A stretch of DNA of 64,000 nucleotides from Hormiphora californensis. Its lineage: Eukaryota > Animalia > Ctenophora. The notes beneath the pieces are model-generated. The model saw nothing but the letters and a program-made list of their open reading frames with translations, had not been told where the DNA came from and did not search any database. The stretch spans positions 4,774,001-4,838,000 of the forward strand of contig CM035354.1 of the NCBI GenBank assembly GCA_020137815.1, given 5' to 3'. Positions within the stretch are counted from its first letter, which is position 1, and each line of letters opens with the position of its first letter. The translations under genes were made by a program, and so were the position numbers. Of the stretch, positions 5,454 to 37,677 are shown one piece after another.

Positions 5454-7660
5454 TTATTCCGATTTCCCTTTTCCGCCTCGTCCCCTCTGACCACCTCGAC
5501 CTCCCTCACCGCCGCCACGACCTCCTTGACTACCACCTCTCCCGCCCTGACCACCTCTTCCGCCTCCTGCTGCTGCTCCCTGATCACCTCCAGCCTTACC
5601 ACCTCGTCCACCGGCACCTCGTCCTGCTGCCCCACCTCGTCCTGCTGCCCCACCTCGTCCTGCTGCCCCACCACGTCCTGTTGCACCACCTCTTCCTGCT
5701 CCTTGACCACCTCCAGCCTTACCACTGGCTTGACTTTCCGCCTTTCTCCTCTTTGCAGCCCTGTTATCCCTCCCATAGAACTCCCAGATACACAACTTTG
5801 CTACAGACGCCAACACAAGGATGGTTGTACCGGCTATATAGTGGGGTTCCAGCTCCTCAAATACTAACGTCTAAAGGGGGGAGGGGGTCAGTAATTCACC
5901 TTATAATAGAGTTAGACTGAGGAAATGGGTGGTAAGATATCCACCATGACCACTATACGAATCAATATTGAAAATGTGGGTGAACCTTATTGGTGGAGTT
6001 GTTCAGCTGTGTGAATTGAAATGGTGGGGGTCTGTCAGATTGAGATTAATAGTAGCACTTACCGAGAACATAGCAGAGAAGAAGACACTGATATTAGAGA
6101 TGGAGGTGAACATCATGACGTAGAGACCGCTACTAAAAGCCAGGATATGTGGCCGGATGAGGGAGAGGGCTGCTGCGAGGGCAACCAGAGCCACCAACCG
6201 GATGTCAGGAACTTGAAGGACGGTGAGAGTGGTCCCAGTGATACCCATATCAACTCCAGTTGCAATACACTTGCACACTGACTCCACGAACAAGAGAGTG
6301 GTGTAATGGGAGGGTAGTCCTCGACCACCGTTGTGATAGATGTGTTGGGCGTTCATCAGGAGGTGACTCTGCATTAGCACCTGGAATATACAGGAGTTAG
6401 ATAATCCGGGAATTATATAGGGTATTCTTCCAGCCACCCTTATTCAATAATTATTTTAAGGGTACTGTTGGTATAAAACAACTTGATAGTTTGAAGATTT
6501 AATAATTGTCAATGTCAGTTAAGAGAATCCCTGTACCTGCGCTAGACCAGCGATCACAGCAGCAATCTGCATGCTTCCAAATGCAGCGAAACTAAGAGTC
6601 ATTGCCCCTTCGGTGAATATCGGGGGTGAAAGGGTGAGGAAAGCGCCCAGACAGGTGGCCATTATAACGGGGTGGTCTAGCCGTTCAAATTTTATACTGA
6701 AATTAGGAAATATTAATATCATAAAAGGAAACTTTAAAGCCAACAATTATACAAAAACTCAAAACTTTACAAATCTAAAATTAACTTACGGTTGTTTCTC
6801 TTTCAGTATCATGGAGGCCATGATGGCGCTAACAAGGAAGCCCAAACTGTTGATAGCAGCGCTCACTACCAGGGGCAGGTGCTGTTGCATAAAACTCTGA
6901 CAGAGGACTATCAGTCCAGCTTCTAGCCCGTGAAAGAACACCCTCTTTTTTGATATCACAGTCGTGGTTAGCGCCGTTAAATTGGGTTTCCTGAAACAAG
7001 TGTGTGCTGTTGTGTTCTCTCTCTCTCTTCACATCACCGATTGTGAAGATCAAGTGAGGATCATTGATCAAGTGTTCAAGAACCTTCACTGAAAGCAAAG
7101 AATAAAGATCACGTAATCAGCCCCTCGACTCACTGGAAGGCGGTGAACAGAGCGATCAGTGTATACTTGAGCAGCTCAAACTGGTGGAAGTGTGAAGCGT
7201 AGTTACCCTCCGCAACGGACGATACTCTTGCGATTACAGCAAGAACAAAGGCCCCGAATGCAGTTGCAATATACATTTCGTAATCATCGTGACTGAATTT
7301 CGGTGGGTCTGCATTGATCGGTTTGTCTATCATTCCCTTCATCCAGCCCCACTGAGGTGGTGCCTCTAACTTGTCTTCCTCCGTAGCTTTCCAGTCCTCC
7401 TTTAGCTCAATAGTGTTCTTGGGGCTATACTGCTGCGACCAATGTCTCATTCCAAGTCCATCCGCCTCTGTCTTGCTGCCCATGTGGAATCCCTTTACTG
7501 CGGAGTACTTTGCAAACGGGTCGTAAATATCTGGTTCTGGGGGATGGAGATGTTTGGTAGAGTTGGGAGTTTGGAGTTGCTATGGTAACGTCAGGCATAT
7601 TTCAATAGTGCCCGGCGTCAAGTCAAGAGAAACAAACCTACCTTCTTTGGAAGCCGTCAT
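5454..7660 (-). CDS. EamA/DMT-superfamily (SLC35G-like) multi-pass transporter, paralog A, with Gly/Arg-rich C-terminal tail
   Basis: About six exons: MTASKE|EPDIYDPFAKYS...WGWMKG...LFTAFQ|KPNL...HLPLVVSAAINSLGFLVSAIMASMILKEK|...|...HYIAGTTILVLASVAKL..., then a GRGGAA-repeat tail. The LP....A.I.S......MA..LL.E pattern is typical of EamA. Colinear with paralog B. Confidence 0.75.
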
Positions 7661-8191
7661 GATGTCAAACAAATCTCAAACAAAAACTGACAAACTGTTT
7701 TCAGTGTTGCGGCAAAACTGCTGACAAAAATTTGAGATCTGCTACGTTGCGTAGGCGGAAAGAACAAGATGCAAGCTGGTTAAGTTTGCAAGTTAGCTTT
7801 TCTCTCTACATACCTGATTTCCTCTCTCTTATTTTCTATCTATTTATCTCTTCCGCCAAAATAGGGGTTCCACAAGCGAGATACTCTCAATATATAGTCT
7901 TGTTTTAGTGATAATAAGACAATGAAGTTATTATAGTCAGGACCACTATTGGTGCGCGGTCGTGCCCACGGAAGGAGTGCTTGGATCATCTTGAAACCGG
8001 TTTTAAGTTAACTAATGCATATCCAAAAGTGTCTGTAGCTATTTGGGTGATGTTCTGACAATCCAATCATGAGTTATGACCAAAAAACAGTCAAAAAAGA
8101 CGTTTTAAAGTGACAAAAAGGAGGACCTGAACACAGCGCTTACAGGAAAGAATTACACGTCGGTTTCGTCAATCATCAACATCAGATCGGG

Positions 8192-8235
8192 CTTAAATTA
8201 ATTTGTTTAAACTAGTGTTGAAAAGTGTGAACCTC
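8192..8235 (-). other. Genomic relic of a full-length (44 nt) spliced-leader exon
   Basis: Minus strand GAGGTTCACACTTTTCAACACTAGTTTAAACAAATTAATTTAAG. Its last 27 nt match the copy at 12263-12289 at 25/27. It resembles the ctenophore SL as I recall it. It is not followed by GT, so it is not an intact SL-RNA gene. Confidence 0.75.
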
Positions 8236-9260
8236 TCTGTTGTTCATCTCCATCTCTATTTATTTTATCTTTAGGTGATTTTGAACATTCCTAGTGCTGG
8301 ACAGCGTGTGAATTGAGGCCCTGCTTTTTGAGCCGTCTCTGACACAGTTCTTTGCACGTGGAATCATCATGTTATTCATAAATTTCTCCTGAAATAGGGA
8401 ACAAATCTTGGCACTTTATTAAAGACACGGGATGTGCACATTATCAAATAAACTTGTTGAGTAGGGTCTGACTGTGGTCTGAAACCCCCTGGGAGCAATA
8501 GGGGGTTTCCAGACCACAGTCAGACACTATTGTTGAGACAAGTGCGTTGAAAATATTGAGGTACCAGTTTTTAGACAATCTAGTAGAGGATCTCTAATTA
8601 CTAAACAATCAGTAAGGCACCAGCGTGTCAGATACCTACCTGTATCCTAACACAGTAGCTAATCCTTTCTCTTCGTTTCTTCGTTGAGAGTGAATAATCG
8701 CACAGCGTACCTACCCCTACCTCTTACTTTCGGCTGCCACATTATCGCATTTAGGAAGTCCTTTATTCTGATAGTTCAATAATTAAATAGTTGATTAAAC
8801 GCCATGTGGCTATTTCACGATTCCCCTTTCAGGGCATTGGCCTGGCCCTCATTCTTATTTCTGTGGTCAGCATTGGCCTGATAGCGATTCCCCTTACCAA
8901 TCATTGTTCATTGAGTTGAAAATTGGATCCCTCTTGCGACTAGCCTAGCAAATTTATGGGGATTTCATCTCCCACTTCCCCTGACCAGTTTCGCCAGTTC
9001 CGCCGGACTTCGGTGGTAACTGAAATTTTCCTCTGATTTCCCTTTAGTGCAATGAGGCATAATCGCAGTAAATTGAAGCTTAACCTCGTGAGGGCTTGTC
9101 CTCAAGTGAGTCATTACTTCACAGTAATATGGTCCCCGTTCTTCCGTTTTGAAGGAGAACTGTCAGCTGACTGCTGAGGGATCCAAATTTTACTTTTAAA
9201 AACTGCTGCAGCATTTTTAAAGTCCATTTTTATTCAACTGTTCACCCTGGGCACGATTAT

Positions 9261-9512
9261 AATCTGGGTGCCTTGCGGCCTGTTTACAGGTGCGCGCTAC
9301 CAAAAGAGTACACTTAGACCGACTTTTTTCAAACGGCTATAGCCACGCAACCACATGGCCAATTTGAGTAAACTAAACGGTAACTGATAGGGAATCGATA
9401 GACCTAACCGATAACCCCAAACCAAACCCTAACCAGACCCTAATGGATAGCCCTAACCCGTCGCGCGCGATAAAACTACGAATTGTTAGCAATGAAAGGC
9501 ACCCAGATTTTA
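9261..9512 (+). mobile_element. MITE with AATCTGGGTG termini and internal CCCTAA-like repeats
   Basis: TIR AATCTGGGTGCC...GGCACCCAGATT. Near-identical inverted copy at about 33612-33860 and a related copy at about 33376-33593. Confidence 0.75.
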
Positions 9513-9652
9513 ACGTTTTCCGTTCACCCTCCAACTCGTGCGCGTGCGATATTTTAATTTACGCTGCGCGCGCTACACGTTAACTTGTGATTAGACGCGC
9601 AAAACAATTCCGCGCACGACTTTGGGGGGTGAACAGTTGAAAAAAAATGGAG

Positions 9653-9877
9653 TAAAGTCGGATTTTTTGAAACTGTCACCCCCCTGAAATAACAAAATTT
9701 GTCATATCTCCGGTTCCTGATAAGATAGCGACTTGAAATTTGGAGGTTCGGAAGAACTTAGCAAGATCTTCGTAACCTCCAAATTTCAAGTCTCTATCTC
9801 ATCAGGAACCGGACTTATGGTCATTTAAAGAAATTTGAAAACTCCAGGGGGTGACAGTTTCAAAAAATCCGACTTTA
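9653..9877. mobile_element. Fold-back MITE with TA ends
   Basis: TIR TAAAGTCGGATTTTTTGAAACTGTCACCCC...GGGGTGACAGTTTCAAAAAATCCGACTTTA. Same TIR family at about 32022-32173. Confidence 0.8.
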
Positions 9878-9880
9878 TAA

Positions 9881-10521
9881 TTTTTTCCCTGCCCGGGTGA
9901 TTGCCGAAGGCAATCACCCGGGATGATGTTTTTAGCACGCACGTGCTAAAAAGATCATTCAGGGTTTAGAAATCAGCAGATTGTGTAGTTAACTAAAATG
10001 TCCGTCCGTCCGTCCACCGTTACACATAGCAACAAAGTCTGCTCCTTCATAAATCTTTCAACTCACACTTTGTTGATGCAATAAAGGAAATGATTAACAC
10101 ATATTGTGGCGCGCAATTACTCACTCGTATCACTTCCTATTTTCACCTGAAATCACTTTGGGTAACCTACAGCCGTACCATGACGTGGTAGCAAGTCTTC
10201 CAAGCATGAAACTACTATCACACAATAATTGCAAGTGACTGGTGTTAAGATTACTGATGCCTGAGGGTAAAGGTGAAGCGCTTGGTCAATGGTCACCAAC
10301 TAGGGTCTCCTAAGCAACTGTCTTGGTTATCATAGCAACTGCCTTGGTTACCATAGCAACCACCCTGGTTACCATAGCAAATAACATCGTATCAGCCAAA
10401 AATTGCTCTTAGAGTGCAAAATTCATCGGAAAATCTGAATTTGAAACTTAGTCATCAATTTTACACCCATCTGGGGCAGGGAAACACCGCATTATGAATA
10501 CATAATGCAATAATTCTTGTT
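9881..10521 (+). mobile_element. Non-autonomous Helentron/DINE-1-like element, copy 2
   Basis: Same termini as 4896-5354, with an internal (GTCC)n tract at about 10000 and a 3' stem-loop at 10489-10508. Confidence 0.72.
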
Positions 10522-11038
10522 AAAGTAAAATGTTTGGATTGTATTTGAGAATTATGCGCGCGGCTTTAGAACACGCGCAAATAAAACGCGCGCATTAATC
10601 ATACATATGGGGAACAGCTGATAGGAACAGCTGAAGTTGTTTATTGTTGACATGCAAGTGTTCATTTAAACAATTTAAACACATTAAATATGGAGTTTTT
10701 AAGACAATGTTTAATAAAATAAGATTACAGCAACAAATTCATTACCAATTTATTGATTTGTCAGAGCCCGAACGCGAATTGAATGTACATTATATCTTTT
10801 TCTTAGGCTTTTCATTGAGAATTTCATAATATTTTTTTAAAAAATACTACCTTTCCTTCGTTTTTTCGTTAGCTGAATTCGAGCTGCCACATTATTGCAT
10901 TTAGGAAGTCCTTTATTCTGATAGCTGAATAATCAAATAGTTGATTAAACGCCATAATATGTGGCTATTTCACGATTCCCCTTTCAGAGCATTGGCCTGG
11001 CCCTCATTCTTATTTCTGTGGTCAGCATTGGCCTGATA

Positions 11039-12288
11039 TTATTATTATTATTAAATCTAAAAATGCATACATTGCATACATATACGCCCCTTTTTGTGGG
11101 CAATTTGGATAGTCCTTTCGATTTAAAATTCAATGGTTAGAGTTCACTTAGCCACATTTAATGACCCCCTTACTAATCCAATAACGTCCATTCGGATTAT
11201 CTCGTTTTAGTTCTTTCAGAGTATCAACAAGAGATTTCCGCTCTCGCTGTTCGTCTGGTGATAGGTCGGGAGAGAGAAAAACGGATGAAAACTTCTCTGA
11301 ACTCTGCAGCTGCTTTGCTTTCCGAAGAAGCTGCAGCAAGGATTCCCTTCTTTCAAGGGTGACGATAACAGGTCTCGCTCGGTCATCAGTCCTTAGGCCA
11401 ACCCGCTTTGTGGAGGTTACGACAGGTTTCTCATTTAGCTCAGCAAAGATATCCTGAACTTCATGATCAGTAGCCCTGGCAGTGGTTTCTGGGAGCCCAA
11501 ATATAACCAAATTCAGCTTTCTATCCGGAGTTGTTCTTTCAGTTGGTGGAGAGGAAACTGTCGCCTTCTTCCATGCTTCCTTCAGGCGAGATGGAGCAAT
11601 AGCAGCTGAACAATTCTGTACAAGGACCTTGGAGTAGTCATGCAACTGCTTTTGGACAGACTCTGACATCGAGTTGTTTTCACCTTTTTGTACTTCAATC
11701 AAACTATTTTGTGCTTCTATCAGCTTCCCTTGCAATGCAATCCTTGCTACCCGATGCTTGTCGACTTCTTCTTTGAACGTGCTAAGTTCTATCTGTACCT
11801 CCTCCAGTTTCCTATTACAGTCCTCCAGTTGCAGGCATTCTTTCGTTCTAGCACTTTCATAGTTCTTCATCTTAGTTTCACACAATCGTTTCTCATTCCC
11901 TATTTCCCTCCCTAACTGGAGAATGTGACGACAGAGTTTCTTAGTGATAGCCTGGAGTCTTTCTGCATTGTACTCCTTCAACTTGTAATCTAGTGGTAGT
12001 GCTTCCTCAATATATTGACGCTCATTATCCTCCGTATCCTTTTCCAAGATCTCTTTTAGTAAATCCTCTATCGCTTCTCGCTCGCTTTGACGATTCAGAG
12101 TTCCTTTCTTTACCAACATTACATCACTCATTGCATTAAACAGTGTACTTCTCATCGTACTACCCAAACATTCTCCTATACTTGAAGATTTCTTGGGCTT
12201 CTCCATCGTCGTCATAGCTTGGGACTGCCCCTACGGGCGGTTCCGCCATCCTAGGGACATATCTCAAATTAATTTGTTTAAAGTAGTG
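11039..12288 (-). mobile_element. SL-capped, ORF1-only non-LTR retro-insertion with a (TAA)5 tail and 5-bp TSD TGATA
   Basis: TSD TGATA at 11034-11038 and 12289-12293; empty site GGCC-TGATA-GCGATT at 8879-8883. The 5' end is the SL 3' portion (12263-12289) and the tail is (TAA)5 at 11039-11053. Confidence 0.88.
11148..12215 (-). CDS. LINE (CR1/L2-type) ORF1 protein, 355 aa, intact
   Basis: Intronless ORF. A coiled coil is followed by RKLNLVIFGLPE...RVG...RPVIVTL...VFLSPDLSPDEQRERKSL...YWISKGVI, the L1-ORF1-like RRM/CTD pattern. Confidence 0.85.
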   Translation of the reverse strand: MTTMEKPKKSSSIGECLGSTMRSTLFNAMSDVMLVKKGTLNRQSEREAIEDLLKEILEKDTEDNERQYIEEALPLDYKLKEYNAERLQAITKKLCRHILQLGREIGNEKRLCETKMKNYESARTKECLQLEDCNRKLEEVQIELSTFKEEVDKHRVARIALQGKLIEAQNSLIEVQKGENNSMSESVQKQLHDYSKVLVQNCSAAIAPSRLKEAWKKATVSSPPTERTTPDRKLNLVIFGLPETTARATDHEVQDIFAELNEKPVVTSTKRVGLRTDDRARPVIVTLERRESLLQLLRKAKQLQSSEKFSSVFLSPDLSPDEQRERKSLVDTLKELKRDNPNGRYWISKGVIKCG

Positions 12289-12645
12289 TGATAGCGATTC
12301 CCCTTACCAATCATTGTTCATTGAGTTGAAAATTGGATCCCTCTTGCGACTAGCCTAGCAAATTTATGGGGACTTACTCCCTGGGATTTCATCTCCCACT
12401 TCCCCTGACCAGTTTCGCCAGTTCCACCGGACTTCGGTCATCGGTGGTAACTGAAATTTTCCTCTGATTTCCCTTTAGTGCAATGAGGCATGGTCGCAGT
12501 AAATTGAAGCTTAACCTCGTGAAGCCTTGTCCTCAAGTGAGCCATTTCTTCACAGTAATATGGTCCCCGTTCTTCCGTTCTGAAGGAGAACTGTCAGCTG
12601 AGGGATCGAAATTTTACTTTTAAAAACTGCAGCAGCATTTTTTAA

Positions 12646-12872
12646 AGGAAAACCCAAGCAACAATAGCCCTCACTTGGGTTTTGTGAAATTTCCCACGAT
12701 CATTGCTCCACCCCCTGATGAGATAGAGACTTGAAATTTTGTAGTTGGATAGATCATGTCGAGTTCTACCTCACTACAAAATTTCAAGTCTCTATCTCAT
12801 CAGGGGGTGGAGCAATGACCGTGGGAAATTTCACAAAACCCAAGTGAGGGCTATTGTTGCTTGGGTTTTCCT
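12646..12872. mobile_element. Fold-back MITE with TTAA TSD (Kolobok-like AG...CT termini)
   Basis: About 100-bp near-perfect TIRs AGGAAAACCCAAGCAACAATAGCCC..., flanked by TTAA at 12642-12645 and 12873-12876. Confidence 0.85.
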
Positions 12873-13249
12873 TTAAAGTAAAATTTTTGGATGCATTTGA
12901 GGATTTCAAATTATGCGCGCGGCTTTAGAACACGCGCAAATAAAACGCGCGCATTAGTACACGAGAAAAAGGAACAGCTAAGCTGAAGTTGTTTATTGTT
13001 GACATACAAGTGTTCATTTAAACAATTTAAACACATTAAATATGGAGTTTTTAAGACGATGTTTAATAAAATAAGATTACAGAAACAAATTTATTATCAA
13101 TTTATTCATACTGATTTGTCAGAGCCCGAATATGAAATTTTCAATAATATTAACATTAAATTAATACATATTAAATCCATAGAACTTCGCAACTCGTAAA
13201 AAAGAACAGATAAATTTCCCATGGTAAACAATCATATAGTTTATTGTTT

Positions 13250-15710
13250 TTATTCCTCTTTGGTTCCATTACCACCTCCACGACCACCTCTCTTTCCTCC
13301 TCTGCCTCCCTCTCCGTCACCCCTCTTGCCTCCTCTGCCTCCCTCTCCGTCACCCCTCTTGCCTCCTCTGCCTCCCTCTCCGTCGCCCCTCTTGCCTCCT
13401 CTGCCTCCCTCTCCGTCGCCCCTCTTTCCTCCCCGGCCTCCCTCTCCGTCACCCCTCTTGCCTCCTCTGCCTCCCTCTCCGTCGCCCCTCTTGCCTCCCT
13501 CTCCATCACCCCCTTCACCACCTTTGCCTTTACCTCCCTTTCCCCCTTTTCCGCCCTTTCCCCCTTTTCCTCCCTTTCCTCCTTTTGATGTGTCAAGCTC
13601 GGCCACTAGTAGTTTGGCAATGCAGGATCCCACAACCATGAGTGTGCCAGTGTAGTAGAGATTGTCGAGTGTCTTGTCACCAAACAACATCATCTAGGGA
13701 GGGGGGGGGGGTGAGTAATAGTCTTGGTATTGGCCCAATACTATTGGGCCTGGGGCTAGGTGATTGGGTTATCAGGGTGATTGCAATATACGTTGAACTT
13801 ACATCGAATACAAGAACGATAATCTAAGCTAAGTACAACTACAATGACTCACCGAATACATGATGGAGTAGAGGACATTAGTGGAGGAGAGGACGCTGGT
13901 AACCGAAACTGGAAGACCACTAGAAAACACGCTGAGGTGAGGTCTGAGCTGATGAAGTCCCGCTGCCATCATGATCAGCACCACCAACCTCCAGTCAGGG
14001 ATCTGGGAAACTTTGGGGGCAGTCCCTGCAATACCGATCTGAACACAACTGGCAATAATCTGACAGCAGGCATCAAAGAACATCAGGGCCGAGAAGTGCT
14101 CCTGTTTAGCGCCGCTCTTGCGGAGTTTCCTGGCGTTTATCATCAGACTGCTCCTGACTACCAACTGAGAGGAGAGAAGTAGAGTTATTGGTCTCTGAAA
14201 AAAAACAGAGCGAGATGTATTGTACTAGAAAATATTGTACCTCCAATAAACCAGTGTGTCGCATGGTTCATTTGACATTTCCTAACTAGAGAGGGGGTCT
14301 ACATGTACCTGAATGAGAGCAAGGGAGATGGCCAGGTACTCGATCTGGCTGAAGACCTTGGCGTTCTCTAAAGCCCCAGTTAGGATGGGAGGTTTGGAGC
14401 AGATAAAGGTGCCCAGACAGGAGAAGAAGATAACAGGGTAGTCCATTTTGGGGTTCATTCTGAAAGTAAAGATGGGTTATAGAGGGAGTGAGGGGAAGGT
14501 GTAGGGAAGGTGCAGGGAGGTTGTTTTGTAGAGGGAGATATGCTTATGTGGATTGTGTAGGAGATGAATTCCACAGAGAACAAATTGGGGAAGAAATAAG
14601 TAGTTGATTTCGAATTATCACGTGTACTTACGATTCTCCAAGAAGGAAGGCGGCCATTACACAGTTACTCATGGTACTCATACTGTTGATGGTAGCTGTG
14701 ATGCTCATCGGGAGGGTCCGGGACACAAAACTCTGACTGAGACCCAACATTCCCATTAGGAGACCCCGCTTTACAAAGGACCATTTCGTCATTCCGAGAT
14801 CAGTTAGCAGACTTAGCTTGGGTTTCCTGAAAATTATGGGTCCAATTAGTGGAAGAAGGGAGAATGTATCACGTCTCTCAGAGCTATTGGTGAGAGAAAA
14901 AGAAATCGATCAATATTTAACTAATTGTTTGACTATGTAACCAACTCAATTTGCCCCTCATTACTTACTGCATTGCACCCATGCCGGCCACAGTAAGGAA
15001 CTTGTATAGCTGGAGCTGATGGGGATGAGATGCGAATCTCTGGTTGAATCTACCCATGGCATTGATAGTAACCATCATGAATGTAGTGAAGAGAGCTGCA
15101 AAATACATCTGTAGATTGGAGTAGGTTGCCTCTGGGATCTCTGCTTTGTAGGTGTTCTCCAGCTTCCCTTTCATCCAACCCCATTGGGGGACTGCCTCGT
15201 ACCTAGAGACACATGGAGTTAGTTATAGTGGGGAGGGGGTAGTTGGGGACACATTCCCAGAGGGTTCAAATAGTTGGGGAGTTAGAGGTTGTGTCACTCT
15301 CAAATCTTAAACTGCGTTTTCCAGGTATCAACACTCCAATCGTGGAGTTTAATTTACCTGTCTTCATCAGTAAGTACAAAGTTTTCCTTTAGCTGTATTG
15401 TATTCTCCTCCCCGTACACAGAGGTCCAGTGTTTCTTGCCCAATGCCTTTGCCTCGGCCATTGATCCATTGTGTATATTGCGGCCTCCAGGGCCTGTCGC
15501 AGCGGAAGCATATTTTTGGAAGGGATTGTAGACGTCAGCCGCGGCACTCTTTATCTTTATCTGGGCTGGGGGAGGTAGTGAGGGGGTTAGATAGTGAGAT
15601 ACAGGGGCTGGTAAAGAAATACAGGGTTCGTGTAGGAGAGGGGCCAGGAGAGAGGTGGGAGAGACAACAAGTATCTTACCAGGCTCCTCAGGTTTGGTTT
15701 CAGCAACCAT
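13250..15710 (-). CDS. EamA/DMT (SLC35G-like) transporter, paralog B, with (GGK)n and (GGRGGKRGDGE)n tail
   Basis: About seven exons: MVAETKPEEP|...VYNPFQKYAS...LGKKHWTSVYGEENTIQLKE|...QWGWMKG...|KPKL...TLPMSITATINSMSTMSNCVMAAFLLGE|... The final exon contains 33-bp tandem units. Confidence 0.75.
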
Positions 15711-36308: not shown

Positions 36309-37677
36309 ATGATGTCTTCACCCTCGGTCTGTGTTATTGGTGCCGGTCCTTCTGGAATGGCTGTCCTCAGTGAGCTGGACGATGATAAACTGAAGGTTAC
36401 TTGCTACGAAAAACAAAGCCAGCCAGGTGGTCTATGGAACTATGACTGGAGAACTGGACTCACAGAATTCGGGGAACCTGTCCACAACAGCCAATACAGG
36501 GGATTGTTTTCAAACAGTCCTAAAGAGTGCATCGAGTTCCCCGAGTACTCCTTCGAGGCACACTTTGGGAAGCCCATTCCCTCCTTTCCACCGAGGCCCG
36601 TCCTGTTTGATTACCTTCGGGGGTGGTGGAGGTTTAGGGGTGTTGATGAGAGCAAGATCTTAACATGTCATACTGTGCGTGGTGTCTCGTATAGCGAGGA
36701 AACTAAGAAATTCACAGTGACCGTCTGTGATCTTAAGACGGGATTGGATAAGGTTGAATTGTTCGATTATTGTATAATTGCGGTGGGACACTTTTCAACT
36801 CCTAACGCCCCTGATTTCCCTGGGCTGCTCTCCTTTCCCGGGAGAATCATCCACAGCCATGACTTTAGGAACGCGGCAGAGTTCTCCGGCCTCAGGATCC
36901 TCTCCATTGGTAACAGTTACAGTGGGGAGGACATGGCGCTACAGACGCTGAAGTTCGGTGCCAAGTCTGTGACCGTGTCTTATCGCAGTAGGAGTACGGG
37001 TTTTAACTGGCCCGCTGGCATAACTGAGAAGCCCATGGTTGAGAGATTCGAGGGGAATACAGTGCACTTTGGAGATGGTACCAGTGGGGAGTATGATGCG
37101 GTGATCATGTCAACAGGATATAAAGTCCACCTTCCCTTTCGTGGACCAGTCCCTGAGATTAGAATGTGGTACACAGCTAAACTGTGCCTGATCTCTACCA
37201 GGGTGTCATGTGGAGTCCCGTTACAAAAGGGAAGAAGAGTGCTGATAATAAGTTGTTTTACTATGGGAATGCAGGATCAGGTTTTCACCTTTACCATGTT
37301 CCAGATGCAGGCAAGGTGGATTGCTCGTGCTATTGCTGGAGATCTGGTAATCCCTTCACTTGATAAACAACGGGAAGACATTCACAAAATGGTTGGCTCG
37401 GAATGACACACTGAAAGATGCGGCTGCTCTAATCAACTGTCAGACGGAGTATGTGATGGGGCTTGCGGAGGAGACGGGGTATTGCCATGGTAACGCTCTA
37501 GATGCACGGGATGCCTGGTTTGGGTGGGTTAAATCCAAGGTTGATGTGGCTCATTATAGGGATCAGAGTTACAGATCTGTTGTAACTGGTCTCATGTCAC
37601 CTGTACATCCTGTACCGTGGATGAAGTTACTAGACGATTCTCTGGAGGCGTATGTAAACCCTATCGGGGAGATGTAG
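36309..37677 (+). CDS. Intronless bacterial-type flavin-containing monooxygenase (trimethylamine monooxygenase Tmm/mFMO-like), frameshifted in this assembly
   Basis: Motifs GAGPSG (FAD), GGLWNYDWRTG..EFGEPVH.SQYR.LFSN.PKEC.EF, FPGRIIHSHDF (FMO signature), GNSYSGED (NADPH), GMQDQ.FTF.MF..QA.W and YRDQSYRS..TG...P.H..PW...LDDSLEAY. Four +1 bases at about 37140, 37183, 37262 and 37389. Confidence 0.9.

Follow-up and report, generated by a model that had tools for sequence, protein, structure and literature searches.

The window, a stretch of 64,000 nt of the Hormiphora californensis genome, carries at 11039-12288 a 1250-bp insert that reads on the minus strand and is bracketed by TGATA duplications. 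From its 5′ end, the insert consists of a remnant of the ctenophore spliced leader (SL), a 5′UTR, an intact ORF1, a 3′UTR and a tail of TAA units (Table 1). A sequence-only reading of this DNA had claimed that the insert is exactly bounded by its target-site duplication (TSD), with the same target uninterrupted in a paralogous block, and that a 355-aa uninterrupted ORF, a 47-nt 5′UTR and (TAA)5 lie on its minus strand; all of these we confirm. Indeed, the hallmarks of target-primed reverse transcription are all present, namely a TSD, a simple-repeat 3′ tail and an empty site, and the tail is the sole run of at least four TAA/TTA units in the window. At the 5′ joint, base 12289 is common to the TSD and the SL match, a 1-nt microhomology.

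We compared contigs from four of the 24 listed sequencing runs with positions 10850-12450, using the DNA runs X4 and X7 and the RNA runs X8 and X10, with X14-X20 (small shares) left out; this comparison listed 22 of the 66 loose ends, and 650 further pieces lie beyond the matches listed.

Table 1. Features of the insertion and of its uninterrupted counterpart (positions in the window)
Feature	Position	Strand	Basis or remark
TSD, 3′ side of element, TGATA on the plus strand	11034..11038	.	sequence; 2-nt microhomology with tail
(TAA)5 tail	11039..11053	-	multi-copy contig (X4 record 12) extends 9 nt into tail
3′UTR, 94 nt, without AATAAA	11054..11147	-	terminal part common to diverged sister copy (X4 record 11)
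ORF1, 355 aa, intact	11148..12215	-	open reading frame
RRM domain (predicted), aa 232-318	11262..11522	-	model; top structural match 2w7a
5′UTR, 47 nt, 62% G+C	12216..12262	-	
Spliced leader remnant, 3′ 26 nt (27 with shared base) of 44-nt ctenophore SL	12263..12288	-	sequence match
TSD, 5′ side of element, TGATA on the plus strand	12289..12293	.	X4 joint 11033>12289, 5 letters fit either side
Paralogous block, uninterrupted target at 8879-8883	8729..9221	+	sequence comparison

Two upstream ATGs lie in the 5′UTR, one of which opens an in-frame uORF of 9 codons at +3, while the other, at +14, is out of frame; the ATG at +14 is probably the in-frame start in the relatives P0003 and P0016, which begin MAEQP. 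At the other end, the length that had been given for the 3′UTR (about 95 nt) was accurate, but the short hairpins ascribed to it do not fold better than chance (z -1.35). We rejected functional 3′ hairpins, because 16 of 200 shuffles fold equally well. The claim that the insert encodes neither reverse transcriptase (RT) nor endonuclease held up in a crude test, a six-frame regular-expression search of the whole window with five short motifs, which gave no match.

Local duplications about 2-3 kb apart, which predate the insertion, pair 8729-9221 with 10878-12645 and 10520-10772 with 12873-13130. Long inverted-repeat (MITE-like) elements lie at 12641-12877, 9653-9877 and 8462-8529, and the central parts of two of these (12714-12804 and 9716-9806) are about 79% alike. 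An Rfam scan of 7500-13500 returned six sub-threshold miRNA-like matches, which fall on inverted repeats, while none matched an SL RNA family. Elsewhere in the window are a dispersed 265-bp repeat with two copies in opposite orientation (9260-9524 and 33861-33597, 97% identical), a tandem array of units of about 52 bp (576-1344), and a 365-aa ORF at 36309-37406 (plus strand) that by eye resembles a flavin-containing monooxygenase.

The leader and the encoded protein

The 27-mer at 12289-12263 (minus strand) is exactly equal to the last 27 nt of the 44-nt Hormiphora SL printed in PMC8527503, which bears out its proposed identity as a spliced leader. Its extent is slightly smaller than had been proposed, since the first A (12289) doubles as the last base of the TSD; 26 nt are strictly inside the insert, and the SL is truncated at its 5′ end by 17-18 nt. 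The chance expectation for an exact 26-mer in the window is ∼1e-10. The SL segment stops precisely at the terminal AG of the exon, which is the sole AG within the retained leader. Thus, genomic DNA here holds an SL exon joined at its last base, without a GT donor and inside a TSD, which is the arrangement that identifies an SL-tagged retrocopy. As a leader should, this stretch adjoins several unrelated sequences in contigs of the RNA runs X8 and X10. Of the Iso-Seq reads of H. californensis, 56% carry the leader, which is present at 718 places in the genome (PMC8527503).

In the DNA runs, the summed contig depth over 12254-12307 is 53,648 (X4) and 142,152 (X7), compared to 24-109 for flank contigs, and here too the stretch borders several unrelated sequences; the Hormiphora genome is very rich in leader-like DNA. 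The window itself holds a second leader-like copy, which is full-length (44 nt, 8235-8192, minus strand), matches the published leader at 40 of 44 positions and lies upstream of what looks like the start of a host gene near 7660, at a distance of about 530 nt. It lacks a GT donor, an Sm-like site and a convincing TSD, and is possibly an older leader retrocopy.

The fold of ORF1 was modeled from a 114-sequence alignment that combined close relatives with some of the 150 matches listed from a profile search, in which 3601 representatives had E values of 0.001 or below. Behind a variable N-terminus, the model (mean pLDDT 79.6, pTM 0.41) has a long helix at aa 84-201, an RRM at aa 232-318 and a domain at the C-terminus (CTD, aa 319-355). 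ORF1 is thus predicted to have a coiled coil-RRM-CTD fold, nearest to that of human L1 ORF1p. Human L1 ORF1p occupies ranks 1-10 of the Foldseek matches (best 2yko, E 1.5e-6) and ranks 1-3 of the VIA-align matches (Z 9.6-9.2, with generic RRMs within 1 Z). In the VIA comparisons, the RRM aligns with the human L1 ORF1p central domain 2w7a over 85 residues (Z 9.6, rmsd 2.7, with generic RRMs again within 1 Z), and model residues 196-355 align with 2yko over 153 residues (Z 9.6, rmsd 9.1). Sequence searches of Pfam (including PF02994) and the PDB with ORF1 returned nothing significant, so it is the fold that links ORF1 to L1 ORF1p. In the ESM Atlas the matches were eukaryotic clusters (best 0.91) along with baculovirus FP entries that were weak; we treat them as leads only.

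Of the label ‘CR1/L2-type ORF1’ that had been given, the LINE ORF1 fold is supported and the clade is not. The model places a coiled coil upstream of a single RRM, with an RRM and CTD like those of human L1 ORF1p, which by predicted fold makes this a LINE ORF1 of type II. Type II ORF1 proteins (coiled coil-RRM-CTD) occur in the L1, CR1, L2 and R1 clades, and the available text of PMC4120745 distinguishes no clear CR1-like or L2-like ORF1. Because type II spans all four clades, ORF1 alone does not assign the element to CR1 or L2.

Relatives, copies and empty sites

We found ten relatives of ORF1 at 42-99% identity among 2405 candidates; the relative P0015 differs from ORF1 at 2 residues. Nine relative clusters comprise 58 members, many of them full-length; 56 of the 58 are on contigs of ≤1.9 kb, which is weak evidence for an ORF1-only structure in a collection with a median contig of about 1 kb. 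Compared with its close relatives P0003-P0008, ORF1 is 27-55% identical in the N-terminus and 74-91% identical in the RRM. Judged from these sequences, there are diverged subfamilies with full-length ORFs.

The contigs of X4 provide evidence of a multi-copy, ORF1-only family, as had been proposed. Record 12 (632 nt, depth 425) starts in the middle of the ORF and reaches the TAA tail without a break and without an ORF2, and record 15 (630 nt, depth 271) extends the other way, from the middle of the ORF across the 5′UTR into 5 nt of SL-identical sequence; the depth of flank contigs is only 24, 28 and 44. The ratio suggests very roughly 5-17 copies, with the caution that depth does not measure copy number. 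A diverged copy, record 11, shares this tail and has another flank. Thus, ORF1 alone precedes the tail both in the window and in record 12, and the element belongs to a dispersed multi-copy family that has moved.

Among the matches listed, a complete 5′ end is observed in one copy, that of the window. Record 15 has 2 unaligned letters just beyond its 5 SL-identical bases, and many copies may differ from the SL at that point, through a variant SL, truncation, an outron or an assembly artefact. At a loose end at 12247, a variant shares the first 16 nt after the SL; if this contig is at least 31 nt long, it should reach about 7 nt into the leader. Together, record 15 and this variant hint that the SL junction is common to the family.

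Selection on the ORF, which had been offered as one reason for its intactness, is suggested between subfamilies only. In a sister contig with 18 differences from ORF1, 7 of the 10 listed sites are synonymous, compared to 22% expected. Near-identical copies give no such sign, with 2 of 9 listed differences synonymous, and 0 of 3 in another short contig. RNA contigs of X8 and X10 cover parts of the ORF and may be DNA.

No partner LINE was found in locus scans of metagenome contigs (queries A1 and P0076) and of genome contigs (query A1), and no ORF1-RT fusion was found among the longer proteins, which is a weak test. The sole longer relative, P0061 (671 aa), was considered as an ORF1-ORF2 fusion and rejected; it is a chimera with host PSF3, not RT, and in a Pfam scan of 26 distant relatives its PSF3_N was the only domain above the curated cutoff. 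The P0076 cluster, a distant ORF1 relative (about 29% identity), is on contigs of 4.3 kb as well as of 1.3-1.5 kb and may mark an autonomous two-ORF element of the same ORF1 family.

That the insertion is recent, as the sequence-only reading had suggested, agrees with empty sites in two samples. The paralogous block resembles the left flank (8729-8883, 93%) and the right flank (8879-9221, 89%), and X4 record 10 reproduces the differences that are diagnostic for it, so locus and paralog can be told apart. X7 record 17 has a locus-type left flank, with 1 difference and without the 5-nt deletion of the paralog, joined straight to 12289. Similarly, a right flank of the locus type in X4 record 16 is joined to 11033 by a junction at which 5 letters fit either side, and this X4 empty site is the weaker of the two observations in that simplified contigs can merge paralogs. 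Since both contigs skip the insert, the site is empty in X4 and X7, with presence and absence read from contigs. The simplest reading is a polymorphic insertion; a third paralog or merged contigs are the alternatives.

Origin and propagation of the element

We consider it fairly probable that the locus holds a recent insertion, absent in two samples, of a 1.25-kb multi-copy element whose sole encoded protein is predicted to fold like LINE ORF1p and which was reverse-transcribed from an SL-trans-spliced RNA by the enzyme of a separate TAA-tailed LINE. The (TAA)n tail, with neither poly(A) nor AATAAA, favors a LINE-type 3′ end over the retrocopy of an ordinary mRNA. On this reading, a Pol II transcript of a source copy would receive the capped SL directly before the 47-nt UTR, and ORF1p would be translated and would coat its own RNA. 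The endonuclease-RT of the partner LINE would recognize the short 3′ end, prime at the nick through the 2-nt tail microhomology and copy the RNA, and copying or joining would have halted 17-18 nt before the cap. Full-length copies probably begin, as a rule, at the SL junction. Several observations count against this account, among them the single complete 5′ end, the unaligned letters of record 15 past its SL bases, the GAG at the end of the leader, the two upstream ATGs before ORF1 and the locus scans that revealed no partner LINE.

If an SL head is the norm, new copies would be without a promoter and would depend on host read-through transcription. Such a promoterless element could renew itself by keeping the host leader as its DNA head, being transcribed by host read-through and being trans-spliced again at the terminal AG of the leader. 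Because that AG is the only one in the leader, re-splicing of read-through RNA would restore the same capped 5′ end in each cycle, without tandem relics. GAG is an unusual splice acceptor. The SL has GAG at its end, the host introns inspected by eye have CAG, and because of the unusual acceptor we hold self-renewal to be a doubtful proposition, if one still worth entertaining.

The SL head could instead be a side product, in which an ORF1-only family has its own promoter and outron, only some of its RNAs are trans-spliced, and the SL-headed copies are promoterless dead ends; the spliced insertions of L1 serve as the analogue, here with trans-splicing. Long-lived subfamilies require some source of transcription, and the two letters beyond 12267 in the main X4 contig would fit this account, as would the SL on ∼30% of Hydra TE Iso-Seq reads (PMC12220107), which indicates that trans-splicing of TE RNA can be incidental. 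However, the multi-copy contig agrees with 5 SL bases at the junction, beyond AG alone, the variant contig has the same 16 nt behind the SL, and none of the 22 of 66 loose ends listed leads at 12263-12267 into a common non-SL sequence. On balance, we judge the side product to be rather unlikely. A domesticated host gene had also been proposed, and we disfavor it: processed copies of an L1TD1-like host ORF1 gene with an ordinarily trans-spliced mRNA would account for the SL junction and the intact ORF, for the synonymous excess relative to the sister contig and for the failure of the locus scans to reveal a partner LINE. Such copies would not be expected to have in common a (TAA)n tail in place of poly(A) and AATAAA, nor does a domesticated gene accord with several subfamilies that keep full-length ORFs or with a polymorphic insertion, which together make it improbable.

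It is likewise conceivable that ORF1 is the first cistron of an autonomous two-ORF LINE, resolved by the host in the manner of an operon, and that this cistron alone was copied. Trans-splicing can resolve polycistronic RNA (PMC4233971), and the 4.3-kb contigs of the P0076 cluster have the size of a full LINE, judged by length alone. Record 12, at a depth of 425, nevertheless runs from ORF1 into the tail unbroken and the sister copy has the same tail end, and the longer proteins without an ORF1-RT fusion weigh, weakly, in the same direction; we regard this possibility as very improbable. In the remaining account the element was never trans-spliced, and the RT jumped from the element RNA to the SL RNA or to the leader of another mRNA. 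Template jumps of R2 onto small RNAs are documented (PMC3414825), but the junction is at the exact last base of the SL exon, and we infer that a jump to the SL RNA should have brought along part of its intron, and a jump to an mRNA part of a host UTR. A template switch therefore appears extremely improbable.

Every cycle requires a non-LTR element to rebuild its 5′ end and its promoter, and to our knowledge the solutions to this problem are internal promoters and ribozymes. A family that uses host trans-splicing would, if true, be a third solution, and self-renewing elements could, if true, account for many of the 718 leader copies in Hormiphora. The SL copies of ctenophore genomes, which run into the hundreds and are left unexplained in the available text of PMC8527503, would thereby gain an explanation that can be tested. 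Moreover, why half-elements keep ORF1 can usefully be asked in this ORF1-only family, which is polymorphic, has diverged subfamilies and appears to be active.

Comparison with known systems

Non-autonomous LINEs that retain ORF1 include HAL1 in the L1 clade, Ag-Sponge in the CR1 clade and HeT-A in the Jockey clade, and bipartite non-autonomous LINEs usually retain the 5′ end of their parent (PMC5786205). The Hormiphora element is like these three in having a single ORF1-type protein without RT, in being multi-copy and in being presumably mobilized in trans, but differs in the 5′ end of the copy in the window, which is the host spliced leader plus 47 nt. The tail of HAL1 is poly(A), of the L1 type. 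With (TAA)5 and no AATAAA, the element is not a HAL1 in the strict sense; rather, it works like an ORF1-only non-autonomous LINE with a head that was probably trans-spliced.

Leaders fixed in DNA are known from the DinoSL-tagged retrogenes of dinoflagellates, which are retrocopies of host genes, sometimes with tandem relic SLs, and in which the SL is proposed to aid renewed expression of the copy (PMC6050394). In both cases, the SL in the DNA marks the copy of a trans-spliced RNA, but the element here belongs to a family that is mobile, is from an animal, ends in a LINE-type tail and carries one perfect SL. For a host-gene origin of the element, no parent was seen, and the family looks mobile. 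In Schistosoma mansoni, SL exons are fused to transposable elements at six loci, for which the authors allow chimeric assembly (PMC5832876), and in Hydra the SL is found on TE transcripts, at the frequency given above (PMC12220107). These cases are similar in that TE RNAs are trans-spliced and may re-integrate with the SL; they differ in that, as described in the available texts, they come without a TSD, an empty site or evidence of a family, whereas both ends and the empty sites are defined here.

If the element is self-renewing, its functional analogues are R2 and the R2 SIDEs, which have no promoter of their own, reside at a fixed rDNA site and use an encoded ribozyme to cut their 5′ end from a host co-transcript (PMC3414825). 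The element would likewise be promoterless, with a 5′ end excised from a host co-transcript, but unlike in R2 that end would be made by the host spliceosome, and at dispersed sites. Among the titles and abstract openings of the top-ranked literature matches, a set outside of which lie most subscription papers and Repbase, we found no description of a leader-headed ORF1-only family. ORF1-only elements and SL-tagged retrocopies are each known separately, and it is their combination that appears to be new.
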